Shown here: positions 9,299 to 28,615 of the stretch, one piece after another
How the letters are laid out: each line of letters starts with the position of its first letter
Position numbering within the stretch: the first letter of the stretch is position 1
Assembly (NCBI GenBank): GCA_965199175.1
Contig: OZ240684.1
Location: 1,058,337-1,122,336, forward strand
DNA: 64,000 nucleotides
Direction of reading: 5' to 3'
From: Alphaproteobacteria bacterium
GTDB lineage: Bacteria; Pseudomonadota; Alphaproteobacteria; G963923945
Program-made: the position numbers and the translations under genes
Notes under the pieces: model-generated
Told to the model about the DNA's origin: nothing
Database searches by the model: none
The model's input: only the letters and a program-made list of their open reading frames with translations

Positions 9299-9308
9299 GT
9301 CGTTTCGG

Positions 9309-9689: not shown

Positions 9690-9829
9690 AATATCGTGCT
9701 GTGGATCATACGGTGATTGATAATCCGTTCGAACAAGCAGATGAAAACCAAAACAAAGTTAGCAGACAGAACAAAAAAGTTAGCAGACAGAAAAAGAGAT
9801 AGAGACAGAAAAACGAAGGAGGAAAAAGA

Positions 9830-10792
9830 ATGGCTAATTTATTATGGCTCCAGGGCGGGGCCTGCTCTGGAAACACAATGTCGTTTCTGAATGCCGAGGA
9901 ACCCAGTGCCTGCGATCTTGTCACCGATTTCGGGATCAATGTTCTTTGGCAGCCGTCACTCGGCCTGGAACTCGGAGACGATGTTAAAGCGATACTGCAA
10001 AAATGTATTTCCGGTGATATCCAGCTGGATATTTTCGTTTTTGAAGGGACGGTTATTGACGCCCCCAACGGGACCGGCGAATGGAACCGGTTTTGTGGTC
10101 GGGCAATGAAAGAATGGGTCAAAGAACTTTCAGCAGCGGCTCAATTTGTTGTTGCTATTGGAGACTGTGCTACTTGGGGCGGTATTCCGGCAACCGCGCC
10201 CAATCCTTCGGATTCCAGGGGTCTGCAATTCCTGAAACGCGAGAAAGGTGGTGCCCTTGGGGAAGGGTTCACATCCAAAGCCGGCCTTCCGGTCATCAAT
10301 ATTCCGGGCTGCCCGGCTCACCCCGATTGGGTCACCCAAATTCTGGTGGCGGTTGCGACCGGACGGGCCGGAGACCTGACCCTTGATGAATTCCAGAGGC
10401 CAAAGACATTTTTCTCAAGTTTCACGCAAACTGGTTGTACTCGAAACATGCATTTTGCTTATAAAGTCTCCTCGACAGCGTTTGGCCAGCGTAAAGGCTG
10501 CCTGTTCTATGACCTTGGTTGCCGTGGGCCGATGACTCATAGCCCATGCAACCGGATTCTCTGGAACCGTCAGTCATCGAAAACTCGCGCCGGTATGCCT
10601 TGTCTGGGTTGCACGGAACCTGAGTTCCCGTTTTTTGATTTAGCACCTGGCACAGTCTTTAAAACTCAGACTGTGATGGGCGTACCCAAAGATCTGCCGA
10701 CAGGCGTGGAAAAAACTGGCTATGTAAAATTGACTGCCGCAGCCAAGGGTGCTGCCCCAGCCTGGGCTGAAAAAGACATTTTCGTCGTCTGA
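9830..10792 (+). CDS. hupS: [NiFe]-hydrogenase small subunit, no Tat signal peptide (group 2a-like HupS)
   Basis: Begins directly MANLLWLQGGACSGN. It has the conserved Cys ligands of the proximal, medial and distal FeS clusters. At 320 aa it matches cyanobacterial-type HupS length. RBS GGAGGAAAAAGA precedes the ATG. Confidence 0.9.
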   Translation: MANLLWLQGGACSGNTMSFLNAEEPSACDLVTDFGINVLWQPSLGLELGDDVKAILQKCISGDIQLDIFVFEGTVIDAPNGTGEWNRFCGRAMKEWVKELSAAAQFVVAIGDCATWGGIPATAPNPSDSRGLQFLKREKGGALGEGFTSKAGLPVINIPGCPAHPDWVTQILVAVATGRAGDLTLDEFQRPKTFFSSFTQTGCTRNMHFAYKVSSTAFGQRKGCLFYDLGCRGPMTHSPCNRILWNRQSSKTRAGMPCLGCTEPEFPFFDLAPGTVFKTQTVMGVPKDLPTGVEKTGYVKLTAAAKGAAPAWAEKDIFVV

Positions 10793-10841
10793 AGTCAGTG
10801 AACAAACAAAAGTCAGTGAACAAATAAAGGGAATTTAAACA

Positions 10842-12437
10842 ATGTCAGCAGCAGTTCAAACTCTTGATATTTCTCCTGTCGGGCGCGTTGAAGGCGACCT
10901 TGACGTTCGTGTCGATATTTCGGATGGCGTTGTAACCAATGCCTGGACAAATGCGGAAATGTTCCGCGGCTTTGAAGTCATCTTGAAAGACAAAGACCCC
11001 CAGGCTGGCCTGGTCGTCACGCCCCGCGCCTGTGGCATCTGTGGTGCGTCGCATCTGACATGTGCTGCCTGGGCGTTGGATACAGCCTGGAGCACGACTG
11101 TCCCAAGAAATGCCATTTTGGCCCGCAACCTTGGTCAGATTGTCGAATCGCTTCAGTCTTTGCCCAGGCATCATTACGGCTTGTTCATGATTGATTACAC
11201 GAACAAAAATTACGCCAATTCGGTTTTTTTCGAAGAAGCCGTCAAGCGCTATGCGCCGTTTACCGGTACTTCCTACGAAGCTGGCGTGACGATTTCCGGC
11301 AGACCGGTTGAGATTTATGCTCTGCTCGGTGGGCAGTGGCCGCACTCATCTTACATGGTGCCAGGTGGCGTGATGTGTGCGCCGACTTTGACGGATGTGA
11401 CCCGGGCCTGGTCGATCCTTGAACACTTTCGACGTAACTGGATTGAACCATTATGGCTTGGATGTTCGATGGAGCGGTATGAAAGCATTCAGACATTAGA
11501 AGATTTTGAGGCATGGCTTGATGAACGTCCGGAACATGCGCGTTCAGACCTCGGCCTTTATTGGCGAATGTCCAAAGATATCGGTCTGGATCAATACGGC
11601 AAAGGCCATGGCAAATTCATCACCTGGGGTTATCTGCCCCATGAGGACAAATATCAAAACCCAACCATTGATGCACGCAGCGGCGCGGTCATCATGAAGG
11701 CCGGGGTATATGATGGTGCTTCTGACAGCTTCCAACCGATGGAACAGTCGTTGGCCCGGGAAGATATGATCCATTCCTGGTACGATGAAGGCAATGATAT
11801 TCACCCTTTTGACCGCACAACCAATCCGATTATGAAGAATGAGATTGATCCGGATGGAAAATATTCCTGGTGCACTTCGGTTCGCCACACTGAAAACGGT
11901 CGCCTTGAGGCGGGTCCACTTGCGCGTCGCCTGGTTTCTGGAGGACCGGGTCAGGATTTCCAGCATTCGGACGGCCTGATCCTGGATATGTATCGGAAGA
12001 TGGGTGGTGCTTCGATTATGCTGCGCCATTTCGCACGGATGCATGAACTGTGTATTCTCTACCGCGAAGCTGAGCGTATTCTGCGTGAATTCAAGCTCAA
12101 TGACGAATGGTATATCAAACCAACCGAGAAAGATGGGCGTGGTTGGGGTGCTACGGAGGCAATTCGTGGTGCCCTCTGCCACTGGATTGATGTTGAAGGC
12201 GGTAAGATCAAGAACTATCAGATCATCGCGCCGACCACCTGGAATGTTGGTCCTCGCGCTGAGAACGGCGAACGGGGACCGATCGAAGAGGCACTCATTG
12301 GGACGCCGATTGCCAACTCTTCGGATCCGGTCGAAGTCGGCCATGTGTGTCGGTCCTATGACAGCTGTTTGGTCTGCACCGTCCATGCTCATGATGGCAA
12401 GACAGGCGAAGAGCTTGCGCGGTTTCGTACGGCGTAA
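10842..12437 (+). CDS. hupL: [NiFe]-hydrogenase large subunit with C-terminal extension
   Basis: N-terminal RACGICGASH and C-terminal DSCLVCTVH motifs ligate the Ni-Fe site. About 16 residues follow the final His, which is a substrate for endopeptidase cleavage. 531 aa. Confidence 0.9.
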   Translation: MSAAVQTLDISPVGRVEGDLDVRVDISDGVVTNAWTNAEMFRGFEVILKDKDPQAGLVVTPRACGICGASHLTCAAWALDTAWSTTVPRNAILARNLGQIVESLQSLPRHHYGLFMIDYTNKNYANSVFFEEAVKRYAPFTGTSYEAGVTISGRPVEIYALLGGQWPHSSYMVPGGVMCAPTLTDVTRAWSILEHFRRNWIEPLWLGCSMERYESIQTLEDFEAWLDERPEHARSDLGLYWRMSKDIGLDQYGKGHGKFITWGYLPHEDKYQNPTIDARSGAVIMKAGVYDGASDSFQPMEQSLAREDMIHSWYDEGNDIHPFDRTTNPIMKNEIDPDGKYSWCTSVRHTENGRLEAGPLARRLVSGGPGQDFQHSDGLILDMYRKMGGASIMLRHFARMHELCILYREAERILREFKLNDEWYIKPTEKDGRGWGATEAIRGALCHWIDVEGGKIKNYQIIAPTTWNVGPRAENGERGPIEEALIGTPIANSSDPVEVGHVCRSYDSCLVCTVHAHDGKTGEELARFRTA

Positions 12438-12507
12438 CCAATAAGGGTATGGAGAGTTCCAAACAAAATCCTGATAAAAAATCCGTAGAAACAAAATTGG
12501 GTTAGGT

Positions 12508-12897
12508 GTGGTGGCTTCGATGGTTGGTGATATTTCTGTTGCGGCGGAGTCTTCGGCTTATCGGCAACGTTACGGGGTTTTGCCTTCCGAGGCCGACCAC
12601 GCAACCCTCATGAAGATGATTGAGGATTTATTTAAGGAGGGTCTGGAGACTCAGATTGAGCCATTTCCGAAAACTGACCGGGAATTTGCGGCGATTCTTG
12701 ATGATCTGCGGATGCTTACGCCAGACCAGCTTCGGGAAAAACTGGTGCTTTCCGGATGGCTTCTCAAGCCCCATGGTGAAGATCAGATGCGTTGTCAGGA
12801 ATGCATGTATTTTCTTGTCCATCGTCGCTGGTGCGATCTTCCGGAGTTGAATTTGCCTGCGGAACCGGAATGGTGGTGCAGATTGTGGAGAATTTAG
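12508..12897 (+). CDS. Hypothetical protein, paralog 1, conserved C-terminal 4-Cys motif (hydrogenase-cluster associated)
   Basis: C-terminus QECMYFLVHRRWCDLPELNLPAEPEWWCRLWRI. Paralogous to the next gene. Confidence 0.5.
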   Translation: MVASMVGDISVAAESSAYRQRYGVLPSEADHATLMKMIEDLFKEGLETQIEPFPKTDREFAAILDDLRMLTPDQLREKLVLSGWLLKPHGEDQMRCQECMYFLVHRRWCDLPELNLPAEPEWWCRLWRI

Positions 12898-12907
12898 GAG
12901 AGAGGAA

Positions 12908-13240
12908 GTGTCTGACCAAGCGTCAAGTCCTGAAGACGATGCGTTGCGCGACCATATCGCGGAGACATTGTCTTCGGGGATAGAAACCGAAGTCTGGCCA
13001 CGCGCCGAAACTTCGGAGATGGTTGAGAATATTGTCAAGCGCTTACAAACCGAAGCCAGAGACGACCTGGACAAGAAGCTGATCATCGGCGGTTTCACCG
13101 ACCACATCATCGAAGCCGAAGGATTGGAACAACCCTGTGAGACTTGTATGTATTACTTGGTGCATCGGAAATTTTGCGAATTACCGGAGTTGATGTTGCC
13201 AGTCGAACCGCATTGGTCTTGCAGACTTTGGCGCATTTGA
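12908..13240 (+). CDS. Hypothetical protein, paralog 2, conserved C-terminal 4-Cys motif
   Basis: C-terminus CETCMYYLVHRKFCELPELMLPVEPHWSCRLWRI aligns residue-for-residue with the previous ORF. GTG start. Confidence 0.5.
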   Translation: MSDQASSPEDDALRDHIAETLSSGIETEVWPRAETSEMVENIVKRLQTEARDDLDKKLIIGGFTDHIIEAEGLEQPCETCMYYLVHRKFCELPELMLPVEPHWSCRLWRI

Positions 13241-13716
13241 ATCCGGCGACAGTCATCATCGGTTGCGGCAACCCGAACCGAAGCGATGATGGAGTCGGCC
13301 CCTATGTCGTTTCCTTGCTTCGTGATCGGGATCTTGGTGATCATGTCTCGCTTTATGATGGCGGGACCGATGGTATGGGTGTCATGTACCGGCTGCGGGG
13401 CTTTGAGCGTCTGGTCATCATTGACGCCCGCATGCCTCAGGGGACTCCGGGCGCATTATATGAAGTCCCCGGAGACGTTCTGGAAACGCGTCCGCCACAA
13501 AGTCTCAATCTTCATGATTTCAGATGGGATCATGCTCTTTATGTCGGCCGCCAAATATATGGCACGGCGTTTCCGGATGATGTATCGGTGTTTTTAATTG
13601 AAGCAGCCAATCTTGATCTGGGATTGGAGATCAGCCCACACATTCAGGCGACGGCCTTGAAAGTTGCAGCGCAGATTGAGCATATGGTGACCGCGCGTGA
13701 TGCGGCGGCTATTTAG
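13237..13716 (+). CDS. hupD: Hydrogenase maturation endopeptidase (HybD/HupD family)
   Basis: Motif VIIGCGNPNRSDDGVGPYVV matches the GxGNxxxxDDGxG signature. The proposed TTG start overlaps the upstream stop. An ATG at 13144 in the track would overlap the previous gene by ~100 nt. Confidence 0.75.
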   Translation: MNPATVIIGCGNPNRSDDGVGPYVVSLLRDRDLGDHVSLYDGGTDGMGVMYRLRGFERLVIIDARMPQGTPGALYEVPGDVLETRPPQSLNLHDFRWDHALYVGRQIYGTAFPDDVSVFLIEAANLDLGLEISPHIQATALKVAAQIEHMVTARDAAAI

Positions 13717-13719
13717 GGA

Positions 13720-14031
13720 GTGGCGATGGCGGTGCGTATTGGCGTCCGGGATGGGTCTGTGTATCTCAATCGGCAGACCGTTGAGACGTATTTCCGGCAT
13801 ATTGACGCTGTAATCATTTTGATCCGTGACCAACAGTTGCAGATTCTGCCGGTTCGGCAGATGGCTGCGGGGGGGTGTTTGCTAAAAGTCCGTAATGCGG
13901 TTGGGGACCGGGTGGCGAACAGCCCGGATGTCTTCGCCGAGCACGGGCTTTCGGCTTGGCGTGATGATGATATTGAGGCAGTTTGGTCGGCGACTCTCGG
14001 TGCTCTTGTTGCAGAGATATCCGCATACTAA
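13720..14031 (+). CDS. Hypothetical protein (hydrogenase cluster)
   Basis: 103-aa ORF. RBS GGGAG lies 6 nt upstream of the ATG, immediately after hupD. Confidence 0.35.
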   Translation: MAMAVRIGVRDGSVYLNRQTVETYFRHIDAVIILIRDQQLQILPVRQMAAGGCLLKVRNAVGDRVANSPDVFAEHGLSAWRDDDIEAVWSATLGALVAEISAY

Positions 14032-14132
14032 GTTTACATATTGAAAAACGACTAGACATAATTCGTATAAACGGGTTTACTTTCCTGAGCGTTCATTGTT
14101 AGCGGATCGAAATCCGTTTACGGGAGGAGAGT

Positions 14133-15122
14133 ATGGTCGCGCGCAGCCGTACCGAAGATGAGGTGAATGCGGCCTTAAAGACGGTCGAAGGAAGCGGCGC
14201 ATCGACGCAGGAAAAAGCCGAGATGCTTATGGAAATCGCCATGGGCCTCCAACAAAAGCCCAAAGCTCCGGGTGATCTTCATGCTGCGGTCACTCTCTAT
14301 AAAAGGAGTCTGGAGCAAGCCAGAGACGCAGATTCGCTGCTTCAGGCACGTATTCGTGCGCGCATGGCCACTGCTATGATGGCCATACCTGGCGATACGA
14401 CGCATTTTCTGGAAAGCGCCCGGGGCGAATTGCAGGACGCCCTGGAGATATTACAAACCGAAGGCCTTGATGCAGAAATCGCAGAAGCCGAAATGAATTT
14501 GGGCCTGGTCTTGCAAAACCTTGCAGAAGTTGGCCAGGGCCGCATTCAAGATGCCATATCGGCCTATCAACGTGCCTTAAGGGTCTTTGATAAAGCCAGT
14601 CATCCTGTAGAATTCGCCATTCTGCAAAATAACATCGCAACTGCTTTCCTTTCGATTCCTTTCACTCAGGAGAGTGGTAAGATGCGGGAGGCTCTGGCCG
14701 TGCAGGCATTTGAAGAGGGTTTGAAAGTGGTCAATCTGATTGACCACCCCCGTGAATACGCCATGTTACAGAATAATCTTGGCAACGCTCTTCAGTACGC
14801 TTCGTCAAGCCATCGGGTTGAAAATGGTTTTCGGGCACTGGAGGCTTATGACGAAGCCTTGAAAGTGAGAACATCCCGCGATATGCCGGATGAATATGCC
14901 AACACCATCGCCAATAAGGCAAATTGCCTGGTCAACCTACCTGATGACCCAGAAAACCCTGACACCGGCAATCAGCATCACTTGTCAATAGCCCAGACTC
15001 TCTACAAGGAAGCGCATACGATTTTCGAGAATACCGGAGCACTCGACAAAGCGGCAATGGTGGCCGAAGCCCTGGCGAACCTATCTTCCGAAACCCGTTT
15101 CGGCCAACCCATCGTTCATTGA
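14133..15122 (+). CDS. TPR-like repeat protein (hydrogenase cluster)
   Basis: 329 aa, helical, with repeated A/L/Y-rich ~34-aa units (ALxxYxxAL patterns). Confidence 0.55.
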   Translation: MVARSRTEDEVNAALKTVEGSGASTQEKAEMLMEIAMGLQQKPKAPGDLHAAVTLYKRSLEQARDADSLLQARIRARMATAMMAIPGDTTHFLESARGELQDALEILQTEGLDAEIAEAEMNLGLVLQNLAEVGQGRIQDAISAYQRALRVFDKASHPVEFAILQNNIATAFLSIPFTQESGKMREALAVQAFEEGLKVVNLIDHPREYAMLQNNLGNALQYASSSHRVENGFRALEAYDEALKVRTSRDMPDEYANTIANKANCLVNLPDDPENPDTGNQHHLSIAQTLYKEAHTIFENTGALDKAAMVAEALANLSSETRFGQPIVH

Positions 15123-16459: not shown

Positions 16460-17640
16460 AGGCAATGATGCTCTCCTCCTTCCAGCCGCTCAAGGCACCA
16501 GGAACTGTGAAAGCAGGCCGATTATTGCTGGATGAAGGCGGACCGGAAGTCATCCTTGGCTGGCGGCAGGGGGAATTGGCGGCTCCTCTTACACCAAGTC
16601 CCTCGACTATGTTCGGACCGCGGGGAGTATGCCTGCACCCTGATGGCTCATTTTGGGCTTCTGATACCGGACATCATCGCCTTCTGGGATGGCACACAAC
16701 ACCCTATCATGATAATGCGGCAGCCGATATCGTCATCGGCCAGCCGGATTTCCTGAGAGAAGGGCGCAATGCCAAGGCAGAGCCCAGTGCCGCAACACTG
16801 AACATGCCGACCGGCGTGGCGGCCTGGGGCAATGGTCTGGCGGTTGCCGATGCTTGGAATCACCGGATTTTGTTGTGGAAAACAACTCCCCGGCAAAGCG
16901 GTCAGGCCGCCGATATCATTTTGGGACAGGAGACCAATATTTCAATCGACGCCAACCGGGGTGCCGACCAACCGACCAAAGCCAGCCTGCACTGGCCTTG
17001 CGGGGTCTCGGTCATTGATGGAAAATTGGTTGTTTGCGACACCGGAAACCGTCGGGTTCTGATCTGGGATCATCCCAAAAAAACCGGGCAACCGGCTGAT
17101 TTGGTTCTGGGTCAATATGATTTTACGACCCGGGACGAGAATGCCGGTGGTCCTGTTTCGGCAATGTCTATGCGGTGGCCACATATGGCCACCTCCTGGT
17201 CTGGGCGTTTTGTTGTAGCTGATGCGGGCAATAACCGAATCATGGTCTGGAACCACATGCCCAGTCACAACGGTGCGTCATCAACATTCATTCTTGGCCA
17301 ACATGATGCGGTTGGATGCGACCATAATCTTGCTGATTATTATCCATGTGCGGCCTCGGTCAACATGCCTTATGCGGCTATCGCCGCAGGGCAAAGGCTG
17401 GTGGTCGCCGATACGGCGAATTCGCGGTTGATTGGATGGTCCAGGGCGGTCACAGGAAGTGATGCTGACCGGCTGACCGGTCAACCGGATTTTGCGGCCA
17501 AAGGGGATAATCGTTGGGGTATGGCGGAACGCGATAGCCTATGCTGGCCTTATGGCCTCTCGGTATTGGACGATTGGATTGCAATCGCAGATAGCGGGAA
17601 CAACCGCGTGCTTTTGTGGCGGGTCGCCGATGCCGGGTGA
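16456..17640 (+). CDS. NHL-repeat beta-propeller protein (hydrogenase-associated)
   Basis: The ATG overlaps the upstream stop (ATGA). At least six repeats of the DxGNxRIxxW/D type (ADAWNHRILLW, CDTGNRRVLIWD, ADAGNNRIMVWN, ADTANSRLIGW, ADSGNNRVLLW). Confidence 0.7.
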   Translation: MKAMMLSSFQPLKAPGTVKAGRLLLDEGGPEVILGWRQGELAAPLTPSPSTMFGPRGVCLHPDGSFWASDTGHHRLLGWHTTPYHDNAAADIVIGQPDFLREGRNAKAEPSAATLNMPTGVAAWGNGLAVADAWNHRILLWKTTPRQSGQAADIILGQETNISIDANRGADQPTKASLHWPCGVSVIDGKLVVCDTGNRRVLIWDHPKKTGQPADLVLGQYDFTTRDENAGGPVSAMSMRWPHMATSWSGRFVVADAGNNRIMVWNHMPSHNGASSTFILGQHDAVGCDHNLADYYPCAASVNMPYAAIAAGQRLVVADTANSRLIGWSRAVTGSDADRLTGQPDFAAKGDNRWGMAERDSLCWPYGLSVLDDWIAIADSGNNRVLLWRVADAG

Positions 17641-19996
17641 ACGTCATAAAATCCGTGGCCAGGTTCAAGGGGTCGGGTTTCGGCCAACCGTTTGGCGGGT
17701 TGCGCGTGAACTTGGCTTAACCGGCAATGTTCGCAATACCGGTGACAGCGTGGAGGTGCTTCTATGGGGAAAAAACAGCGATAGTTTCGTCGATCAATTA
17801 CGCCTCCAACTCCCGCCTCTGGCCAAAATCGATGACTGGGAGCGTGCACCTGTGAGCGGACCAGCACCCGAAACCTTCTCGATTGAGGCATCTTTGTCCG
17901 ATCATGTAAAAACTTCCGTGACCCCGGATACCAATATATGCGCCGACTGCCTGGCAGAGATCCGTGACCCCTTTGAAAGACGCTACCGCTATCCATTCGC
18001 GAATTGCACCAATTGCGGACCACGATTTTCAATCATTGAGAGTGTTCCTTACGACCGGGACGGGACAACCATGCGGTCATTTGACCTTTGTCCCGATTGC
18101 GCGGTTGAATACCGGGACCCGGCTGATCGGCGATTTCACGCTCAACCGGTCGCTTGCCATGCTTGCGGACCGCGCGCCTGGTTGGAAAAACTTGGTGGCG
18201 GTACCGTCAATTCCGAATCTTTTTCGATGATGGATGATGTTGATGCTGCAGGTGGTGCATTGATGCGCGGATTCATCCTCGCCATCAAAGGTATTGGCGG
18301 ATTTCATCTGGCCTGTGACGCCACCAAGCCAGACGTCGTGAATGCTTTAAGAGAGCGCAAGAATCGAAAGGGCAAAGCGTTTGCGCTGATGGCCCGTGAT
18401 CTCGATGTTATCAGTCAATATGCGGCGGTATCAGATGAGGAAGCAGCCCTCCTGAGAGGACCCGAAGCACCGATTGTTCTTCTAAGGGCCCAGGGTAAAC
18501 CATTACCTGAGGCGATCGCGCCGGGCCTTGATCGACTCGGCTTTATGCTGCCTCACACGCCTCTGCATCATTTGCTGCTGAGCCGGATGAAACGCCCGGT
18601 AGTCATGACCTCGGGAAACCTGTCCGGACAACCGCAATGCACCCGGAATACCGATGCTCGTAGGCGTTTGACAGGAATCGCTGACTTCGCACTCATGCAT
18701 AACCGCACCATCGCAAACCGCATTGATGATAGTGTGGTTCGGGTCGATATGGGGCGAATGCGGATGTTACGGCGGGCTCGGGGTTATACACCCAAGGCAA
18801 TCCCTCTGCCCAAAGGCTTTTCCCAAAACCATAAGATTTTAGCTCTTGGTGCCGAACTCAAAAACGCTTTCAGCCTTGTCAAAGAGGGTCAGGCAATCCT
18901 CAGCCAACATATGGGAGATATGGAAGACTTCTCCACCCAGGCCGATATCGACCACACTCTTGCTCTCTATCAATCCTTGTATCGGTTTTCGCCGGATCTG
19001 ATCGCCGTTGACAGCCATCCGGAATATCTTTCGACCAAGCGCGGCTACGCAATGGCCCGGGACTTGCCCATCATTGAGGTACAGCATCATCATGCTCATA
19101 TCGCCAGCTGCCTGGTTGAAAATGGCTACGCCCTCAATGCACCGCCGGTATTGGGAATCGCTTTAGATGGTCTTGGTTTGGGTGATGATGGAACCTTTTG
19201 GGGCGGCGAATTTCTGATCGCTGATTACCAGGGGTACCAACGCGCTGGCTGTTTGAAACCGGTCGCTCTGCCAGGGGGCGATTCGGCTGTGCGCGAACCT
19301 TGGCGGAATGCCTATGCGCATCTGATGGCCGAAATGGGCTGGGCGGAATTTGAAATGAATTTTTCCGATCTCGAACTGTATCATAAGCTCAACGCCACAC
19401 CGCGCAAAACTCTTGATGCGATGATATTGTCGAATACCAATGCGCCGCTATCATCATCCTGTGGCCGCCTGTTCGATGCTGCGGCTACGATGATCGGTAT
19501 TGCCTGGGAGCGCCAAGACTATGAAGGCCAGGCAGCCATGCAGTTTGAAGCCATCCTGGATGTTGATGCGCTCAATGAACCTGATGACCATGCCTATCCA
19601 TTCGCGATCCCGCTGTTGGGTGGTGCCGGCCTGCCCTATATTGAGCCGCTGGCAGTATGGCGGGCAATGCTGGGTGATTTAATTTTGGGGACACCCGTCG
19701 GCGTTATGTCGGCCCGGTTTCATCGCGGTCTTGCCAAAGCCATTGCGGCAATGACAAACCGGATCACGTCGAAAACTGAAATTGATACAGTCGTCCTCAC
19801 CGGCGGTTGTTTCCAGAATGCCACTTTGTTCAGGCTGGTGAGCACATATTTAAAAGATATAGGCTTGACGCTTTTCAGCCATTCGAAAATCCCCGCCAAT
19901 GATGGGGGACTTGCTCTCGGCCAGGCCGCAATCGCTTTGGCCCTCAACTCAAAAGGAGACAACCATGTGCCTCGGGATACCCGGACAGATCATTGA
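17630..19996 (+). CDS. hypF: Carbamoyltransferase HypF
   Basis: Acylphosphatase N-terminus (VQGVGFRP), two Zn-finger CxxC pairs, YrdC and Kae1-like domains. Internal start at 17630; the ORF track extends to 17492. Confidence 0.9.
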   Translation: MPGERHKIRGQVQGVGFRPTVWRVARELGLTGNVRNTGDSVEVLLWGKNSDSFVDQLRLQLPPLAKIDDWERAPVSGPAPETFSIEASLSDHVKTSVTPDTNICADCLAEIRDPFERRYRYPFANCTNCGPRFSIIESVPYDRDGTTMRSFDLCPDCAVEYRDPADRRFHAQPVACHACGPRAWLEKLGGGTVNSESFSMMDDVDAAGGALMRGFILAIKGIGGFHLACDATKPDVVNALRERKNRKGKAFALMARDLDVISQYAAVSDEEAALLRGPEAPIVLLRAQGKPLPEAIAPGLDRLGFMLPHTPLHHLLLSRMKRPVVMTSGNLSGQPQCTRNTDARRRLTGIADFALMHNRTIANRIDDSVVRVDMGRMRMLRRARGYTPKAIPLPKGFSQNHKILALGAELKNAFSLVKEGQAILSQHMGDMEDFSTQADIDHTLALYQSLYRFSPDLIAVDSHPEYLSTKRGYAMARDLPIIEVQHHHAHIASCLVENGYALNAPPVLGIALDGLGLGDDGTFWGGEFLIADYQGYQRAGCLKPVALPGGDSAVREPWRNAYAHLMAEMGWAEFEMNFSDLELYHKLNATPRKTLDAMILSNTNAPLSSSCGRLFDAAATMIGIAWERQDYEGQAAMQFEAILDVDALNEPDDHAYPFAIPLLGGAGLPYIEPLAVWRAMLGDLILGTPVGVMSARFHRGLAKAIAAMTNRITSKTEIDTVVLTGGCFQNATLFRLVSTYLKDIGLTLFSHSKIPANDGGLALGQAAIALALNSKGDNHVPRDTRTDH

Positions 19997-20258
19997 AATC
20001 TCTGATCCAGCCAAGAAACTCGCGCTGGTGGACGTATCTGGCGTTCGCCGTGAAGTGAATGTTGCCTGCATCGCCGAAAATAATCCGATTGACGACCTGA
20101 TTGGTGCCTGGGCGTTGATCCATGTCGGGTTTGCGATGTCTCGCATCAATGAGGAGGAAGCCGCCAAGACTCTGGAAGTCCTCAGGATGCTGGGCGAAGC
20201 GCAAGAAGAAATCGAAGCGATGCGCCAAAGCCAGCAGATGCTGGAGCAGACATCATGA
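19965..20258 (+). CDS. hypC: Hydrogenase maturation factor HypC
   Basis: N-terminal MCLGIPGQI signature; 97 aa. Confidence 0.85.
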   Translation: MCLGIPGQIIEISDPAKKLALVDVSGVRREVNVACIAENNPIDDLIGAWALIHVGFAMSRINEEEAAKTLEVLRMLGEAQEEIEAMRQSQQMLEQTS

Positions 20259-21394
20259 AATATGCCGACGAGTTCCGTGATCCCGTTGCGGCCAGAGGCG
20301 TCCTGGCAGCCATCGAAAACGTTGTCACCGAGCTGGGTGCAACAGCCGAGAAACCGATCCATATTATGGAGATTTGCGGCGGCCACACCCATGCAATCTT
20401 CCGTTATGGACTCGATAAACTGACGCCGCCGGGGCTGGAATTCATTCATGGTCCTGGATGCCCGGTTTGCGTACTTCCGATGCGTCGGGTCGATGAATGC
20501 GTCGAACTGGCTGAGCAGCATCAGGTCATTTTTACAACATTCGGTGACGCGATGCGGGTTCCGGGAACTCGAAAATCACTGATGCAAGCCAAGGCGGAGG
20601 GATGTGACATCCGCATGGTCTACTCGCCTCTGGATGCCCTTGAATTGGCCCGCCGCCATCGGGACCGGGAAGTCGTTTTCTTTGGTCTTGGGTTTGAGAC
20701 AACCACTCCATCAACCGCATTATCAATCCAGCAAGCGGCTTGTGAAAAGCTGGAGAATTTCACAATCTTCTGCAACCATGTGACGGTTCCACCGCCAATT
20801 AAGGCTTTGTTGGATGACCCACATATGATCCTCGACGGGTTTGTCGGTCCGGGCCATGTATCAATGGTGATCGGTGTCAGACCGTATGATTTTATTGCCC
20901 AGGAATACGGTAAACCGATTGTCGTAGCCGGGTTTGAGCCGCTGGATTTGTTGCAGTCAGTCTTGATGGTTTTAGAACAAATCCGTGATGGACGGGCTGA
21001 GGTCGAAAATCAATATTCCAGAGTGGTTCCAGATGAGGGCAACCCGGTCTCTGTCGCTGCTTGCGAAGATGTTTATGAACGTCGTGAAAGTTTTGAATGG
21101 CGGGGTTTGGGAGAGATTGACTTCTCTGGCCTGAAAATTCGCAAAAAATATGCGGCTTTTGACGCTGAGCGAAAATTCGCTATCGGCTATGGAACCAATC
21201 GCCAACCGACCAGGGAACCCGAAGGGTGCGCTTGCGGCGACGTGATGACGGGCCGGATTAAACCTCGGCAATGCCCACAGTTTGGCGGCGGCTGTACGCC
21301 GGAAACGCCTTTGGGTGCATTGATGGTTTCATCTGAAGGGGCGTGTGCGGCCTATTACCAATATGGTGGTGCTCAATTGGAAACCACGCAATGA
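20255..21394 (+). CDS. hypD: Hydrogenase maturation factor HypD
   Basis: Motifs CGGHTH, GPGCPVC and FETT; 379 aa. Confidence 0.9.
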   Translation: MKYADEFRDPVAARGVLAAIENVVTELGATAEKPIHIMEICGGHTHAIFRYGLDKLTPPGLEFIHGPGCPVCVLPMRRVDECVELAEQHQVIFTTFGDAMRVPGTRKSLMQAKAEGCDIRMVYSPLDALELARRHRDREVVFFGLGFETTTPSTALSIQQAACEKLENFTIFCNHVTVPPPIKALLDDPHMILDGFVGPGHVSMVIGVRPYDFIAQEYGKPIVVAGFEPLDLLQSVLMVLEQIRDGRAEVENQYSRVVPDEGNPVSVAACEDVYERRESFEWRGLGEIDFSGLKIRKKYAAFDAERKFAIGYGTNRQPTREPEGCACGDVMTGRIKPRQCPQFGGGCTPETPLGALMVSSEGACAAYYQYGGAQLETTQ

Positions 21395-22434
21395 CAACGC
21401 TTGCGCCATCGCGACGGCTCCGGGCCGATACGGTGACACTGGCTCACGGCGGTGGCGGTAAGGCAATGCGGGATCTTATCACGGATGTCTTCCTGTCTGT
21501 CTTCACGCCCACTGATCTGGAGGATCAAGCCCGCCTGCAATCAGATGCCCTGACCGAAACCGGAACCCAGCTGGCGTTCACGACCGATGGATTCGTTGTC
21601 GACCCCATTGAATTTCCGGGTGGAGATATCGGCAGAATTGCCGTCTGCGGAACAGTTAATGATCTGGCTGTCGGCGGTGCCCGTCCCCTCTGGCTGTCGG
21701 CCGGCTTTATTATTGAGGAGGGATGCGACGTCGCCTTGCTGCGCCGCATTGCCCACTCAATGCAGACGGCGGCGACAGAAGCAGATGTACGTATTGTCAC
21801 AGGTGACACCAAGGTGGTCGGAAAAGGATCGGCGGATGGCGTTTTCGTAACCACCTCCGGCATTGGCGTTATTTCTCCGGGTCGGTCTCTGAGTGCCGCC
21901 AATATACGGCCAGGGGATATCGCCATCGTCAATGGCGTTCTCGGTGATCATGGTGCTGCTATTCTGGCCGCACGCGGTGACATGGCTCTGTCTGCGACAA
22001 TCAAAAGCGATTGCCAACCACTGGCCGCGCTCATGAATGCGGTGCTTGAAGCCGCTCCCGGGGTCCGCGCAGCCAGAGATGCTACACGAGGCGGACTTGC
22101 TTCGGCGTTGAACGAAATTGCCGAGGCGGCAGGCTACGGCATAGAAATCGACGAAACTGATTTGCCTTTGAGGACTGAAGTTAAAGGGGTTTGCGAAATT
22201 CTTGGGTTGGATCCACTTTATCTGGCTAATGAGGGGACTCTAGTTCTATTCGTTCCGCCTGAACAAGAAGATGCCGCACTGGCTGCAATGCACAGTCTAC
22301 CGGCTGGTCGGCACGCTGTCTCTATTGGACACGTCGTTCAGTCCCATCCCGGTGTCGTTGTTATGCGTACAACATTTGGAAGTGCGCGTATCATTGACAT
22401 GCTGGTCGGTGAGCAACTGCCTAGAATCTGCTGA
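21391..22434 (+). CDS. hypE: Carbamoyl dehydratase HypE
   Basis: AIR-synthase-like fold. The ATG overlaps the hypD stop. Confidence 0.9.
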   Translation: MTTLAPSRRLRADTVTLAHGGGGKAMRDLITDVFLSVFTPTDLEDQARLQSDALTETGTQLAFTTDGFVVDPIEFPGGDIGRIAVCGTVNDLAVGGARPLWLSAGFIIEEGCDVALLRRIAHSMQTAATEADVRIVTGDTKVVGKGSADGVFVTTSGIGVISPGRSLSAANIRPGDIAIVNGVLGDHGAAILAARGDMALSATIKSDCQPLAALMNAVLEAAPGVRAARDATRGGLASALNEIAEAAGYGIEIDETDLPLRTEVKGVCEILGLDPLYLANEGTLVLFVPPEQEDAALAAMHSLPAGRHAVSIGHVVQSHPGVVVMRTTFGSARIIDMLVGEQLPRIC

Positions 22435-22441
22435 GATATAT

Positions 22442-23158
22442 ATGATTAGCTTTCTGTTTCTCGGATTTCTCATTGGTATGAGCCATGCAGTTGAGGCTGA
22501 TCACCTGGCCGCAATTGGGGCTTTGGCTGCTCGTGAAGCTGGCGGGAGACGATCCCTGGTCTTGAGGGGTGTTGCTTGGGGGATGGGTCATACAATCACC
22601 CTGTTTGCTTTGTGTTTTCTGGTTCTGATCTTCGGAATCGCCATCACCGACGAAGCAGCAGCAGCACTGGAATTCGGGGTTGGAGTCATGTTGGTGCTTC
22701 TGGGGTCTGATGTATTGTGGCGGATATATAAAAGACGTATTCATTTCCATCCGCACACCCATGATGGTGGTCAGCTGCATTTGCATGCGCATTCTCACCC
22801 TAAAACCGATACTCCTCATGAGGTTGATCACCACCACCATACCCATTCCGGTTTTTCACTTAAGGCCATGATGGTTGGCCTCATGCATGGAGCAGCTGGC
22901 GCGGCAGCACTTCTCGCGCTCGCTGTCGCCACCGCCAAAGATCCACTGGTCGCGCTGGCCTATACACTTGTCTTCGGGGTGGGATCCATCATTGGTATGG
23001 CACTGTTATCATTCGTTGCTGCGTGGCCGCTTCAAAGTGTCGAAGGACACGCCCATTTCATCTATCGGTTCTTGATAGCACTGGCTGGATGTGCCGCCAT
23101 TTTTATTGGCATTGATAGTATGTTCAATACCGGTGCGCTTGCATGGAGAGTGTTCTGA
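22442..23158 (+). CDS. Nickel transporter-like membrane protein (HupE/UreJ-NicO superfamily) with His-rich loop
   Basis: Multiple TM helices; the HAVEADH motif; loop HFHPHTHDGGQLHLHAHSHPKTDTPHEVDHHHHTHSGF. Confidence 0.65.
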   Translation: MISFLFLGFLIGMSHAVEADHLAAIGALAAREAGGRRSLVLRGVAWGMGHTITLFALCFLVLIFGIAITDEAAAALEFGVGVMLVLLGSDVLWRIYKRRIHFHPHTHDGGQLHLHAHSHPKTDTPHEVDHHHHTHSGFSLKAMMVGLMHGAAGAAALLALAVATAKDPLVALAYTLVFGVGSIIGMALLSFVAAWPLQSVEGHAHFIYRFLIALAGCAAIFIGIDSMFNTGALAWRVF

Positions 23159-23400
23159 TGCATGAACTTGGCCTCAGCAGAAATATTGTCGCCATCGTTT
23201 CGGAGCATGCGGCAGGTCGGCGGGTCAAACGCGTACGGATCGCCATTGGTCCGCTTGCATGCGTTGAACGCGCTGCCTTGGCGTTTTGCTGGCGTTTAGT
23301 CGTGGAAGGAACCGATCTTGCCATCGCCGAATTGGTCTTCATTGAAGCCGAAGGCGATACTTTTCTGATTAAAGACTACGAACTGGAGGAGGCAGCTTGA
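23158..23400 (+). CDS. hypA: HypA-like nickel metallochaperone, N-terminal domain only (zinc-finger module absent)
   Basis: Starts with the MHE Ni-binding motif (MHELGLS). At 80 aa it ends before the expected CxxC...CxxC motifs, and hypB starts immediately after. Confidence 0.6.
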   Translation: MHELGLSRNIVAIVSEHAAGRRVKRVRIAIGPLACVERAALAFCWRLVVEGTDLAIAELVFIEAEGDTFLIKDYELEEAA

Positions 23401-24215
23401 TGTGCGGAACATGCGGATGTTCAGATCCTAAGAATGACGTAGCTTTAATTGATCCTGAAACCGGAGAGAAAATGATTATGCGCCAGGGCAGTATTCTTGG
23501 ACAGGATCATCCGTCTCACAGCCATGGCGGTGATGATCCTCCGCATATCCATGGCCCGGACGGTGAGACTGTCAGTCTTGAGACAGCTGTGCTCGCTAAA
23601 AATGAAGCCATTGCGGCGCGTAATCGCGATTGGTTCGAGAGTAATAGCGTATTGGCGTTGAATCTTGTCAGTTCGCCGGGAGCCGGAAAAACAACCCTTC
23701 TTGAACGCACAATCAGGGAATTAAACCCTACTGTTGAGATTGCCGTGATCGAAGGTGATCAAATGACGACAAACGACGCCTATCGTATCCGGGCCGCCGG
23801 AGCCAAGGCAATCCAGATCAATACCGGGGCCGGATGTCATCTCGAAGCGGATATGATTGCGCAAGCGGTTACCCGTCTTGATCTTGCTCCCGGGGCTATT
23901 TTGATGATTGAAAATGTCGGGAATCTGGTTTGTCCAGCGATGTTTGATCTTGGAGAACATATGAAGGTCGCTGTTGTTTCGACAACTGAGGGCGAAGATA
24001 AACCACTGAAATACCCCCATATGTTCCGCGTTTGTGATCTTGTTGTGATCAACAAGATTGACCTGGTGCCTCATGTCGATTTCGATGAGACGCTGTGTCG
24101 GGACAATATTGCAAAAGTCAATCCGCACTCAAAGATCATATCCTTATCAAGTAAATCCGGGCATGGTTTTACGGCATGGACAGATTGGCTGGGAAGACAA
24201 CAACGCCCAGATTAG
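23400..24215 (+). CDS. hypB: Hydrogenase nickel incorporation GTPase HypB
   Basis: N-terminal MCGTCGC high-affinity Ni site, His-rich stretch, P-loop GSPGAGKTT, and ENVGNLVCP. Confidence 0.9.
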   Translation: MCGTCGCSDPKNDVALIDPETGEKMIMRQGSILGQDHPSHSHGGDDPPHIHGPDGETVSLETAVLAKNEAIAARNRDWFESNSVLALNLVSSPGAGKTTLLERTIRELNPTVEIAVIEGDQMTTNDAYRIRAAGAKAIQINTGAGCHLEADMIAQAVTRLDLAPGAILMIENVGNLVCPAMFDLGEHMKVAVVSTTEGEDKPLKYPHMFRVCDLVVINKIDLVPHVDFDETLCRDNIAKVNPHSKIISLSSKSGHGFTAWTDWLGRQQRPD

Positions 24216-25075
24216 ATGATGGTCGGGTCATATTCGGGAAAATGGAACGCTCTCAACACTGTCTGATCGAGACAATATCTCGGACTTGCAGGCCCCGGTG
24301 TTACAACAGAATGCGCAGGGCGACCACAGCGTTAGGATCATGGGCTTGTATATCATCAAATTCCCGTCCAGGTGCCATCAATTCATCATCTGTCAAGTAA
24401 TGAGCCGTAAAGTCAGTTTTGCCTCACCGCAGAACCCGGCAGAGATTGGAGTCTGGATGCCGCAGCCCAAGAATCTCGGCGATGATAACGCCGCCAGTGC
24501 CCCGTTGGCCGCTCCGGGATGGATGATGGCGATCTTGCCATGCCCGTTGCGGATATCCTTGGCAGGAAGGTCATTGATCAGGTAGTCTCGGAAAGTCAGC
24601 ACCCGCACGGTACGTACTGGCCCGCATTGATGGCTTCCAGCACGGTGCGCAATCGGTTAGGAATATTGGTGCGAACATCTGTATGGTTGGGATCGTTGCC
24701 TATGATGCGCCAGTTTGAGCCTCAATAGTGATTGTGCGCGCTGCATATTGGGCGTCTTCGAGGGTCAGGACATCCAATAGGCCGGGCATCTGTTTGATGA
24801 CTGAGCCACCCCAGCACCGATGTATGATTCATGTTTTGGTTTGTTCGTGCATAGCTCCAGACCCAGCCTGCCACTATCCCGCAGGCAAGCCTTGCGCCTT
24901 TGGGTCGGTATCAAAGCGCAAGACACGTATTTGCGCGATTTTTATTCGGCATTTTCCAATTTCTCCCATGCGTTTGGGGTACCAATAATCCGCCATCAAC
25001 CTGACCGGGGAATATCCGGGACAGGCTGGGTGACATTGTTCACGTTGGAAATTGGAAGGATTAAAACTATGCGTT
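24216..25075. pseudogene. Degenerate region with frameshifted gene fragments on both strands
   Basis: Only short ORFs that overlap one another in several frames. The minus-strand reading is broken across frames (NIPNRLRTVLEAINAGQYV..., then GKIAIIHPGAANGALAA...). No RBS-anchored intact gene. Confidence 0.3.
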
Positions 25076-25190
25076 CAATCACTGTGCAGGCTTTAAATCA
25101 TTGATACAGATCTATTTTTGTCACATAGCAACGGGAGTAGCATGTCGCCATTTTTTGAATATCTTGCGGCGACAATTCCCCATACCTGAA
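25076..25190 (+). repeat. Copy B of the ~125-bp direct repeat flanking the hydrogenase island
   Basis: See copy A at 7460-7590. Confidence 0.8.
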
Positions 25191-25331
25191 GTATCATTGA
25201 CATTTCAGGGTAGAATAACCGGATATTTGTTGGGTTTTTTTCTATCATCCTGCTAAATAAGGCTCTCTTTTTGTTTTTATTGATCCTTCTTATCTTTATT
25301 GATCCTTTTTGATTTCTTGTTCTTTTTGATA

Positions 25332-26390
25332 ATGTCTGTTTCTCTCAATGTCGCTGTTCTTGGAGCTGGTGGCTATACCGGTGGCGAAATTTTACGTCTT
25401 TTGCTGGCTCATCCCCAAATTCGCATCACGACCCTGACCGCAAAAAGCAAAGCCGGACATTCTGTTGCGAATATTCACCCTCATCTGAGTTCCGTAAACT
25501 GGCCGGTTCTCTGCCGTCTTGAGGACGCTGATTTTTCCTCAGTCGACTGTGTTTTTTGTTGTTTGCCCCATGCAGCCAGCCAGGAAACAGTTGCCTCCTT
25601 ACCTGAACATGTGCGGGTTATTGATCTTTCGGCTGATTTTCGTCTACGCGACCCGGCACTCTATCAATCCTGGTATGGTCGCGATCATACCGCCCGCCAT
25701 CTTCTGGATGATGCCATCTATGGTTTATCGGAATGGAGTCGTCATCGCTTGCCAACAGCACAGCTGGTTGCCAATCCTGGCTGCTATGCAACCGCTATTC
25801 TCCTGGCTCTGCGCCCCCTGATTGCCCATGGACTGATTGATCATCAGGGAATCACGATTGCGGCTGCTTCGGGAGTCTCGGGAGCCGGACGGGAAGCCAG
25901 GGAAGATTTACTCCTCAGCCAGGCCGGTGAATCCATAAAAGCATACGCATTAGGTGGTCATCGTCATGTTGCCGAAATTGAACAGGAACTCAATGCCGTC
26001 GATCCCAATAGGGATAAAACGGCCGCATCCCCGATCACATTCATCCCCCATCTGGCTCCCATGACCCGGGGTATTCTGGCCACCACCGTTGCCACAATGA
26101 CAGATGGACAAGATGTTGCTGATTTACGTACAGCCCTGACACAGGCTTATCAGGAATCGGCTTTTGTCCATATTCTGCCTGATGGTCATTTCCCGGCCAC
26201 CAAGGACGTCCGGGGGAGCAATTCCTGTCATATCGGCCTGGCCCAAGACCGAACCCCGAAGAGAGTCATTCTCCTTTCGGCCATTGACAATCTGGTGAAA
26301 GGTGCGGCGGGTCAAGCCATTCAGAATATGAATCTGATGTTTGGTTTCCCGGAAACAACCGGCCTTCCAATCGCTGGCCTTTCGCCTTAA
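25332..26390 (+). CDS. argC: N-acetyl-gamma-glutamyl-phosphate reductase
   Basis: NAD-binding VAVLGAGGYTGGE and the active-site Cys region NPGCYAT. Confidence 0.9.
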   Translation: MSVSLNVAVLGAGGYTGGEILRLLLAHPQIRITTLTAKSKAGHSVANIHPHLSSVNWPVLCRLEDADFSSVDCVFCCLPHAASQETVASLPEHVRVIDLSADFRLRDPALYQSWYGRDHTARHLLDDAIYGLSEWSRHRLPTAQLVANPGCYATAILLALRPLIAHGLIDHQGITIAAASGVSGAGREAREDLLLSQAGESIKAYALGGHRHVAEIEQELNAVDPNRDKTAASPITFIPHLAPMTRGILATTVATMTDGQDVADLRTALTQAYQESAFVHILPDGHFPATKDVRGSNSCHIGLAQDRTPKRVILLSAIDNLVKGAAGQAIQNMNLMFGFPETTGLPIAGLSP

Positions 26391-26537
26391 TATTATTCTG
26401 TTATCGAATCGCGTACGAGACTCAACAACCGCACCATGATCTCTCATCAATAAAGTAAGGAGAAAATAAAGTAAGGAGAAAATCAGTCGCCTGTTTCTGT
26501 ATTCTGTTCCGACACACAGAAAAATGGGAGTCACTCA

Positions 26538-27983
26538 ATGGAAAAACCCGAGTATTTACAGCAAGGAGAATCGGCCCGTTTATTTCCCGTCCTTTCAACA
26601 TCATCAAAGGAAAAACGACTCATATCAGTTTTTTTAGCCTGCTTGTCGAAAGTTGACGAATTTGGTCACTCGTTACTGGTATCCATTGGAAAAAAAGTCG
26701 GTAAACGTGGGTCGATTGTAACATATACGGAAGTTGTTTTTAAGAGTGATAACACGTTCAAAGACGACCGACCTGACGGCTTGATTGTCGTCAAAACCGG
26801 ATCACGGGAATGGCGCGCACTCGTGGAAGCCAAGGTCGGCGCAAACGCATTATGTGAGGAACAAACTGAGCGTTATCGTAGCCTTGCAAAGGAATACGGC
26901 GTTGATTGCCTGATAACGATCTCCAACCAATTCACTGCTTCTCCAAAGATACATCCCTTAGAGAGAATTCACAAAAAACGCTCAAAAATTCCGGTTTTTC
27001 ATTGGTCCTGGATGTCTATTCTGACGACTGTGGATATCTTGCTCAACAATCAGGATATTGCCGATACGGATCAATCTTTATTACTCAACGAATTTCGGCG
27101 TTTTTTAAGCCATGAAAGCAGCGGCGTCAGAGGGTTTAACCGCATGCCGGCCGCATGGTCTGATCTGAATCGTCTCATCTTAGCCAATGGCACAATACCG
27201 GCTAAGTCGCCAGAAGCGTATACTGTTCTTGAAGCATGGCACCAGGAAACCCGTAATCTGGCACTTATTCTCAGCCGGCAAACCGAGACATTCGTCATCG
27301 AAAAACTACCCCGTAAGCATATGAGGGATCCAAAAACCCGGCTAGAAAATGCGTTGAAACTGTTGCGGGAAAAAAATTATCTCTATTGCTGCATTGATAT
27401 CCCTGATAGCGCAGCACCGATTGAAATTCGTGCCAATATTGCGCGCCGCATATTGGAAGTTGGTATGACGATCTCTGCTCCAGAAGACAAAAAATCGTCC
27501 AAAGCTCGTGTTAACTGGTTAATCCGCCAGGTTAAATCCTCAAAGACCGAAGATATTCATATCCGGCTCAACTGGCCCGGAAGAAGCGAAATCACACAGT
27601 TTCCATTTTCAGAAATTTCTGCCGATCCATCAATCATTGAACAAGGAAAATCCGGCCTTCAGGTTGTCAGCTTCCATATCTATCTGGCAAAACCACTTGG
27701 GTCCCGGTTTGCGCAACAAACCAATTTCATTACTGATCTGGAAACATTGATCCCGCAATTTTACCGGGAAATCGGCCAAAATCTCACTGCCTGGCGCAAA
27801 CCACCCCCGCGTATCAGAGATAACGCAGAACATAACATGGGAAATAATCCAGAAACTGACATGGAAAATAGTGAAAATGGGACAAGTCAAAATGGCGCAA
27901 AAAGTACCTCCCTTGTCGATCATACTCAAAATGATTACACAAATAGATCTTTCAACCAGGAGGAAGCCGTTGCATCAGATTGA
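26538..27983 (+). CDS. Hypothetical protein with N-terminal PD-(D/E)XK nuclease-like motif set
   Basis: E11, RPDGLIVV and VEAKVG fit the E...PD...(D/E)xK arrangement within the first ~130 aa. About 350 aa of unassigned sequence follows. The gene is visibly more A+T-rich than its neighbours. Confidence 0.55.
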   Translation: MEKPEYLQQGESARLFPVLSTSSKEKRLISVFLACLSKVDEFGHSLLVSIGKKVGKRGSIVTYTEVVFKSDNTFKDDRPDGLIVVKTGSREWRALVEAKVGANALCEEQTERYRSLAKEYGVDCLITISNQFTASPKIHPLERIHKKRSKIPVFHWSWMSILTTVDILLNNQDIADTDQSLLLNEFRRFLSHESSGVRGFNRMPAAWSDLNRLILANGTIPAKSPEAYTVLEAWHQETRNLALILSRQTETFVIEKLPRKHMRDPKTRLENALKLLREKNYLYCCIDIPDSAAPIEIRANIARRILEVGMTISAPEDKKSSKARVNWLIRQVKSSKTEDIHIRLNWPGRSEITQFPFSEISADPSIIEQGKSGLQVVSFHIYLAKPLGSRFAQQTNFITDLETLIPQFYREIGQNLTAWRKPPPRIRDNAEHNMGNNPETDMENSENGTSQNGAKSTSLVDHTQNDYTNRSFNQEEAVASD

Positions 27984-28084
27984 TATCGCGAATAAAAATC
28001 CAGAACAGATCAACTGATATGGGTGATAAAAATACCCATGTCATACATCCTTCTATAAACACCATTGATGAAAGACGCATTCCC

Positions 28085-28615
28085 ATGCCTGGCCTTATTC
28101 TCCCCTATCTGGATCATATGCCCCGTCTGGCGGCCGATATCTTTATTGCCGATGGAGCGGTGGTCATTGGTGACGTGGAGCTGGGTGAAGGTGTCAATAT
28201 TTGGTTCAATGCGGTCTTGCGCGGTGATATGAACTCGATCCGGGTCGGGGCCAATAGCAATGTCCAGGATGGGGTGGTGGTCCATGTTCATTCCGATGGC
28301 TTGCCCACGACCATCGGTGCCAATGTCACCATCGGTCATCATGCCATTATCCATGCCTGTACCCTTGAAGACGGCTGCCTTATTGGTATGGGGGCGTGTG
28401 TTCTTGATGGTGCTGTTGTGGAAACCGGGGCTTTGGTCGCCGCCGGGGCTTTGGTCCCACCACGAAAAATCGTTAAAGCGGGTGAATTATGGGCCGGTAA
28501 TCCGGCTCAGTTCATGCGGCCAGTCAATGATGCCGAGCGGCACATACTCACCACAACGCCAGAAAAATATCGCGCATTGGCGCAGGAACACCGCCAGACC
28601 CACTCAGACCGGTGA
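28085..28615 (+). CDS. Gamma-class carbonic anhydrase family protein (left-handed beta-helix, YrdA/PaaY-like)
   Basis: Hexapeptide repeats and His ligands (HVHSDG...HHAIIH). Internal start at Met36 of the 27980 ORF. Confidence 0.8.
   Translation: MPGLILPYLDHMPRLAADIFIADGAVVIGDVELGEGVNIWFNAVLRGDMNSIRVGANSNVQDGVVVHVHSDGLPTTIGANVTIGHHAIIHACTLEDGCLIGMGACVLDGAVVETGALVAAGALVPPRKIVKAGELWAGNPAQFMRPVNDAERHILTTTPEKYRALAQEHRQTHSDR

Follow-up and report, generated by a model that had tools for sequence, protein, structure and literature searches.

What kind of protein is encoded by the open reading frame (ORF) that separates argC from a hexapeptide-repeat gene in an alphaproteobacterial genome (GenBank assembly GCA_965199175.1), and how long has it been there? 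This ORF, called gene X below, lies in a stretch of 64,000 nucleotides (nt) of contig OZ240684.1 (positions 1,058,337 to 1,122,336 of the forward strand), which we refer to as the window and whose own numbering is used throughout. The original prediction, made from the letters of the DNA, took gene X for a recently inserted orphan that encodes a restriction-like nuclease of antiphage type. It was found that the protein is a member of a large, so far undescribed family of single-gene nucleases, and that gene X is a long-standing resident accessory gene between its two neighbors. As for its function, we favor a metal-dependent DNA endonuclease, gated or assembled through its C-terminal module, that would attack invading DNA or else serve in suicide or stress, and we give this reading a probability of roughly 45%. 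A part in defence is plausible, though unproven. The gene and the parts of its product are as follows.

26538 to 27983, + strand: gene X, stop codon included, encoding a 481-amino-acid (aa) protein of an uncharacterised nuclease family (from the ORF list, the sequence, full-length homologues and an AlphaFold model)
26538 to 27008, + strand: N-terminal PD-(D/E)XK (restriction-endonuclease-fold) domain, residues 1-157
26772 to 26876, + strand: catalytic core P79-D80...E97-x-K99...Q109-x-x-x-Y113, with D80, E97, K99, Q109 and Y113 each present in 105 of 105 aligned family members
27123 to 27797, + strand: C-terminal helical and alpha/beta module, residues 196-420, with a fold like that of YktB/DUF1054 and of YbjN and type III secretion chaperones
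27798 to 27980, + strand: disordered, acidic, Asn-rich tail, residues 421-481

The ORF is present as it had been described and starts with ATG. Conservation in the family was counted in an alignment of 105 diverse members with a mean column identity of 29%. Besides the five residues of the catalytic core, the columns of H155, W158 and W207 are invariant, and those of R14, L15, P17, E25, E65, R78, P79 and G81 are nearly so. The motifs RPD80G and VE97AK99 occur in all 105 members, which is far beyond chance at this mean identity. The same catalytic residues are also retained in a second alphaproteobacterial subfamily and in the fused actinomycete proteins described below. In the AlphaFold model of the full protein (pLDDT, or predicted local distance difference test, 81; predicted template modelling score, pTM, 0.75), D80 opens the strand 81-87 while E97 and K99 close the strand 90-98, a canonical geometry. 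An alpha/beta core with a central mixed sheet, the D...(D/E)xK signature and an upstream acid are all present, as in the PD-(D/E)XK superfamily, and the assignment of gene X to nucleases of this kind is upheld. The E...PD...(D/E)xK triad that had been proposed stands in its RPDG and VEAK parts but not in its first acid. E11, the candidate for that position, is Glu in just 51 of the 105 relatives and was rejected. The conserved upstream acids are E25 (104/105), on the helix 24-38, and E65 (103/105), on the strand 59-68. The Q109-x-x-x-Y113 element that follows ExK corresponds to the QxxxY motif, by which RecB/Cas4-like families are recognized; the window protein itself has no Pfam match. Among distant relatives, two gave sub-threshold matches to VRR_NUC (E 0.004 and 0.12), and one of the fused proteins gave a weak match to Tox-REase-7 (E 0.04).

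The best structural neighbors of the nuclease domain are catalytic domains of the Mrr/FokI/MspJI/AspBHI type, and the identity of X to such domains (AF1548, the nuclease domain of LlaBIII, N.BspD6I, FokI, MspJI, AspBHI, EcoT38I) is 10-16%. This neighborhood, together with a solitary gene that has no methyltransferase, is what one would expect of a type IV, Mrr-like, modification-dependent restriction enzyme whose C-terminal module reads modified DNA. We consider such an enzyme very unlikely here. No match was obtained to profiles of Mrr_cat, Mrr_N, SRA, EVE or other reader domains, and the C-terminal fold is unlike that of the known readers of modified bases; by structure comparison it resembles the protein-binding chaperone, YbjN and YktB folds. 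Also, in contrast to the Mrr/FokI/MspJI-type enzymes, X carries its nuclease at the N-terminus, joins it to a different partner domain, and lacks DNA-reader, methyltransferase and helicase modules.

Ligand-gated effector nucleases, namely Can2, Card1 and Cap4, are also found among the structural neighbors. When compared with Can1, Can2, Card1, Cap4 and NucC of the CRISPR type III and CBASS systems, X lacks CARF and SAVED domains, cyclase and CRISPR genes are absent from its surroundings, and the corresponding PADLOC models are unmatched. When compared with Shedu (SduA) and Hachiman HamA, X differs in its domain order and in its accessory fold, and has no helicase partner. The likeness to Mrr/FokI-type domains, Can2, Card1, Cap4 and Shedu would thus be one of operation, as a stand-alone or sensor-coupled PD-(D/E)XK effector. 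Membership in Shedu (DUF4263), Hachiman HamA (DUF1837), Mrr or NERD, the families against which the original prediction wished the protein to be compared, is not borne out by any Pfam, NCBIfam or PADLOC profile match, and the same is true of VRR-NUC.

The part of the protein behind the nuclease had been described as helical, which holds only in part. Residues 196-425, when modelled alone (pLDDT 91), form a helical layer and a six-stranded sheet, the latter within residues 281-386. The distant structural neighbors of this module are YktB/DUF1054, the YbjN family (AmyR, DR_1245) and the secretion chaperones Spa15, SicP and SycN, with identities of 5-16% and no Pfam match to DUF1054 or YbjN. Those proteins differ from X in being small and stand-alone and not nuclease-fused, and the function of YktB is not known. 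A restriction-fold nuclease followed by a YktB/chaperone-like module, with or without TerD, is an architecture for which there is neither a curated model nor a solved relative; therefore, a structure would be informative. The description of the last residues as a disordered, acidic and Asn-rich tail proved right: pLDDT is below 50, and 10 Asn and 11 Asp or Glu residues are found among 61. This tail is shorter in the homologues, and one member of the family terminates in a GYF_2 domain.

The family is a large one. A word-indexed search returned 851 homologues of the gene X protein, one of them 80% identical (from the locus called L004 below) and hundreds of them full-length at about 60% identity, in hosts that include Roseovarius, Phaeobacter, Ruegeria, Sulfitobacter, Thalassospira and Oricola. 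An exhaustive HMMER search over 1.84 billion cluster representatives, with clusters formed at 50% identity, gave 1459 clusters at E <=1e-3 and 403 at E <=1e-30; nearly all of the 1459 are 430-500 aa long and match from end to end. The term orphan does not survive these counts. The family falls into two or more subfamilies that share about 35% identity and occur in the same bacterial orders. On the other hand, databases of known families are silent. The gene X protein has zero matches in Pfam, NCBIfam, PADLOC and PHROGs; PADLOC-DB v2, taken up to E 10, was not matched by the window protein, and 10 distant members gave no match to it either; and no chain in PDB was matched by phmmer or by two profiles. 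In the literature on TerD in connection with nucleases or defence, a scope that did not take in Anantharaman et al. 2012 on the Ter system, no account of the family was found.

Relatives also occur in actinomycetes. By tblastn, the module was found in 11 plasmids of Rhodococcus and Streptomyces, with a query cover of 83-90%, an identity of 26.5-29% and E values of 1e-33 to 1e-44. In the 10 annotated plasmid records the matches fall inside genes named "TerD family protein", the 11th record being unannotated. The products are fusions of 650-700 aa, with TerD (PF02342) at about residues 1-175 and the nuclease module behind it; in a 698-aa Rhodococcus protein, TerD occupies residues 6-171. Of the 120 top-ranking relatives of the Rhodococcus module, 114 contain PF02342, and several are named "stress response protein SCP2". 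Since the actinomycete relatives are fused to TerD, the "stress response protein" label carried by some stand-alone alphaproteobacterial members most likely spread from them by similarity. TerD was found only in the actinomycete fusions, and all alphaproteobacterial members are without it. In the literature, TerD figures as a ligand-binding element of Ter, a system of resistance to phages and xenobiotics (PMC7824862; PMC3710099), and TerB-domain proteins are present in two validated defence systems, Bunzi and Shango (bioRxiv 10.1101/2022.05.11.491447). The likeness of the family to the Ter system, Bunzi and Shango accordingly consists of PF02342 in its actinomycete members and of this precedent for Ter domains in defence; the window protein differs in having no TerD and no adjoining ter genes.

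The fusions also bring in an explanation without phages, in which X would be a Ter-like effector for metal, xenobiotic, Ca2+ or envelope stress that processes or degrades chromosomal DNA or RNA, with the stand-alone forms regulated in trans. The dominance of the TerD fusion in actinomycetes speaks for it, as do the high conservation of the protein and the ordinary chromosomal contexts of Nocardia and Rhodococcus copies, one of which stands beside a gene for an extracytoplasmic function (ECF) sigma factor. However, no other ter genes were seen near the gene in the window or in the examined loci, and an upstream SOS box of the alphaproteobacterial type was found at only 1 of 79 loci and rejected, with no common upstream motif seen. 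The foreign-looking composition and the mobile cassettes reported below would suit genes of conflict better. We therefore rate a purely non-antiviral stress nuclease as unlikely.

Base composition was compared between the family gene and its neighbors at 73 related loci, drawn from L001-L083, and the window. The GC content of the family gene is lower at 66 of the 73 loci, by a mean of 7.4 points, and the GC content at third codon positions (GC3) is lower at 62, by a mean of 11.8 points. For example, GC3 is 0.35 against 0.74 in Marivita and 0.51 against 0.74 in Phaeobacter. The A+T-richness persists where synteny and the gene tree suggest vertical inheritance, as in the Phaeobacter/Leisingera clade; one conceivable cause would be selection for the silencing of a toxic gene.

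The genomic contexts vary as well. No neighbor recurs across about 80 loci, and a conserved partner gene was rejected, the exception being a clade-specific protein with three transmembrane (TM) segments in Ruegeria and Roseibium. The claim that the nuclease stands alone is therefore sound: neither a methyltransferase nor any other conserved partner accompanies it across the loci. Some genomes of the Roseobacter group have the order DUF6455-like gene, X, MiaB-like gene, AsmA gene; in Thalassospira the gene follows alaS, and in Oricola it lies between leuA and trpE. The contexts rich in defence genes or mobile elements are L085, L092, L094, L087 and L019. At L092, a defence island (1135-14213) adjoins a homologue of the second subfamily and contains GmrSD, an IS110 transposase, a TrwC relaxase and a RADAR-like pair, the latter made up of an 855-aa adenosine-deaminase protein and a 743-aa AAA_16 ATPase. 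L094 is rich in insertion sequences (IS), and at L091 a VapBC-like pair adjoins the gene. The copy on the Rhodococcus plasmid pLP337 has SIR2, ThiF, MPN, DUF6602 and IS110 nearby. The Thalassovita copy (L019) has one and the same pair of integrase and IS91 (Y2_Tnp) genes on either side, in the manner of a composite transposon, with the upstream pair at 3355-5505. Among 149 unique neighbors within three genes, about 8-10 match PADLOC models and 5 are recombinases, these being raw counts without a background rate. Phage genomes searched by tblastn did not contain the family, and a single contig of IMG/VR has the gene, within an element bearing a serine integrase and a ParB-methyltransferase; the identity of X as a phage gene was rejected on these grounds.

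Three further loci (L012, L054 and L065) come from metagenome-assembled genomes binned as Acidimicrobiales, Zixiibacteriota and Chloroflexi, and carry copies of the Rhodobacterales or Oricola type. The gene content and order of L012 match those of L013 from Marivita cryptomonadis. These contigs are probably mis-binned rather than witnesses of transfer across phyla.

Mobility also shows in a 2.2-kb cassette that occurs in unrelated flanks at 7 loci (L047, L050, L051, L057, L060, L074 and L076, at about 5150-7400 in each). Its hosts are Ruegeria species, strain KLH11, which has two copies, and Roseibium. At the nucleotide level the copies are about 86% identical, or 73% in Roseibium. It consists of the nuclease gene and a divergently transcribed gene for the 223-aa three-TM protein, which belongs to no Pfam family. 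A cassette that occurs in unrelated flanks and holds no recombinase, and whose nuclease gene remains AT-rich, could be taken as selfish, its cutting serving to spread or retain the cassette by homing or addiction with no benefit to the host. This is hardly credible for the family, because the gene is stable at one site in several lineages and the cassette, apart from the three-TM protein of one clade, has no antitoxin-like partner.

The same data bear on a further possibility, that of a vertically inherited housekeeping nuclease of DNA repair or recombination, similar to NucS or the RecB family. Profiles of repair families in Pfam and NCBIfam gave no match to the gene X protein, and the spread is patchy: relatives were found in 293 stretches when 185,579 species-representative genomes were scanned. 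The linkage to argC is found in L004 alone, so that the original prediction is not undone by a repair-family assignment with conserved synteny. Together with the foreign-looking GC3, extra copies exist in some genomes and others lie on plasmids, and the homologue of Phaeobacter sp. BS52 is split into pieces of 178 aa and 271 aa (P0124 and P0125), which suggests that the gene is dispensable. A housekeeping repair role is thus distinctly improbable, and the family looks accessory and horizontally mobile.

How far does this mobility apply to the window? In L004, the gene order is the same, namely argC, X, hexapeptide gene, phaC, ompA-like gene and aminotransferase gene, and the collinear block extends to the gene of homoserine dehydrogenase. 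A single nucleotide match of 80.8% takes in argC, the spacer and X, and stops at 27824, the tail being not alignable at the nucleotide level. The protein identities between the window and L004 are 81% for argC, 80% for X, 84% for the hexapeptide protein and 87% for phaC. Because the block is shared and X has diverged to the same extent as its neighbors, X predates the split of the two lineages. A recent insertion was rejected on this evidence; of the claim of horizontal mobility, the part that stands is that for the family, with its AT-rich genes, varied contexts, cassettes and IS or integrase neighbors, and the word recent falls at this locus. The base composition within the window gives a mixed answer too. 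With a GC content of 0.447, gene X is the lowest of 46 window ORFs (mean 0.527, standard deviation 0.033), as its description as A+T-richer than its flanks implies, but its GC3 of 0.429 is no outlier among them (mean 0.53, standard deviation 0.06).

Our preferred reading of a gated endonuclease builds on the intact and strongly conserved restriction-fold active site, the tightly conserved C-terminal module, the single-gene unit, the mobility of the family, its conflict-rich surroundings at some loci, the ligand-gated nucleases among its structural neighbors and the recurrent fusion to TerD; the DNA substrate, the gating and the defence or stress role are inferred. The N-terminal restriction-fold nuclease would cut invading or cellular DNA once triggered. 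The C-terminal module, whose fold serves protein binding and dimerisation in other proteins, would restrain or assemble the nuclease, and the acidic tail would perhaps share in the gating. In the fused actinomycete forms, TerD would add a sensor of Ca2+ or a ligand. A bolder version is that the family constitutes a new class of single-polypeptide immune nuclease, in which the secretion-chaperone/YktB-like module would recognize a protein of a phage or plasmid, or govern assembly, and thereby free the nuclease. The TerD fusions would then be a missing nuclease arm of the long-enigmatic Ter system of resistance to tellurite, phages and colicins, one that links ligand or Ca2+ sensing by TerD directly to DNA cleavage. 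We hold this version as possible but doubtful.

Several observations weigh against the gated endonuclease. The identity of about 60% between orders and the mean column identity of 69% extend over the whole length and are unusually high for a defence gene. In this lineage, the divergence of X is close to that of its housekeeping neighbors (80% against 81-87% protein identity), and a Pfam scan found no TerD domain in its product. The lack of PADLOC matches, both for this protein and for the ten distant members, counts on the same side. Of the chromosomal contexts open to annotation, the majority are plain housekeeping neighborhoods, including L001-L003, L088, L090, L093 and L095. Also, the role suggested for the C-terminal fold is drawn from distant structural neighbors that are mostly uncharacterised themselves.

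The surroundings of gene X in the window contain two smaller features, both in the spacer between argC and X.

26449 to 26483, + strand: 16-nt tandem duplication (Tandem Repeats Finder: 2.2 copies, period 16, 100% identical)
26526 to 26530, + strand: GGGAG, a putative Shine-Dalgarno-like site that precedes the ATG of gene X by 7 nt, as read from the sequence

The tandem repeat had been reported before and is indeed present and perfect. Its pattern occurs once in the window and is missing from L004, and as the repeat lies about 55 nt 5' of the start codon, it is not the ribosome-binding site. It is treated here as a lineage-specific slip without a demonstrated role. Promoter and terminator scans of 26300-28200 gave results at chance level only.

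The flanking genes have the same orientation as gene X, as had been noted, with argC (Semialdhyde_dh domains) on one side and the hexapeptide-repeat gene on the other; beyond the latter lies phaC on the opposite strand. The hexapeptide-repeat gene is delimited mechanically at 27980-28615, with a TTG start at 27980 that overlaps the stop codon of gene X and probably lies too far 5'. Homology at the nucleotide level to L004, where the protein has 178 aa, begins at 28082, and the likely start is the ATG at 28086, so that about 100 nt would separate it from gene X.

Upstream of argC, the synteny with L004 breaks at once, with a hyp cluster in the window and autotransporter and IalB genes in L004. 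The cluster (17492-24215, + strand) is for hydrogenase maturation and consists of hypF, hypD, hypE, a NicO-like nickel transporter gene, a short hypA (85 aa) and hypB; it is missing at the corresponding position of L004. Between hypB and argC, the interval 24216-25298 (about 1.08 kb) has no convincing ORF and no Rfam match, coincides exactly with the synteny break, and the GC content drops to 0.41 near 25000-25500. Outside the collinear block, a stretch of 83 nt is 100% identical between the window (4857-4939) and L004 (4181-4263), and it coincides with a tRNA gene (4860-4933 of the window, minus strand).

If the family does consist of defence or stress nucleases, it would be a widespread single-gene system of marine Alphaproteobacteria, fused to TerD in Rhodococcus, Nocardia and Streptomyces, which current annotation and the libraries of defence finders have missed altogether. 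To our knowledge, the sensing and control exerted by TerD have been unclear ever since the ter operon was tied to resistance to phages and colicins, and the fusion of TerD to a nuclease would give a concrete handle on both. The wider value of the finding therefore lies in the family and in this fusion, while in the window itself gene X is an ordinary resident accessory gene.

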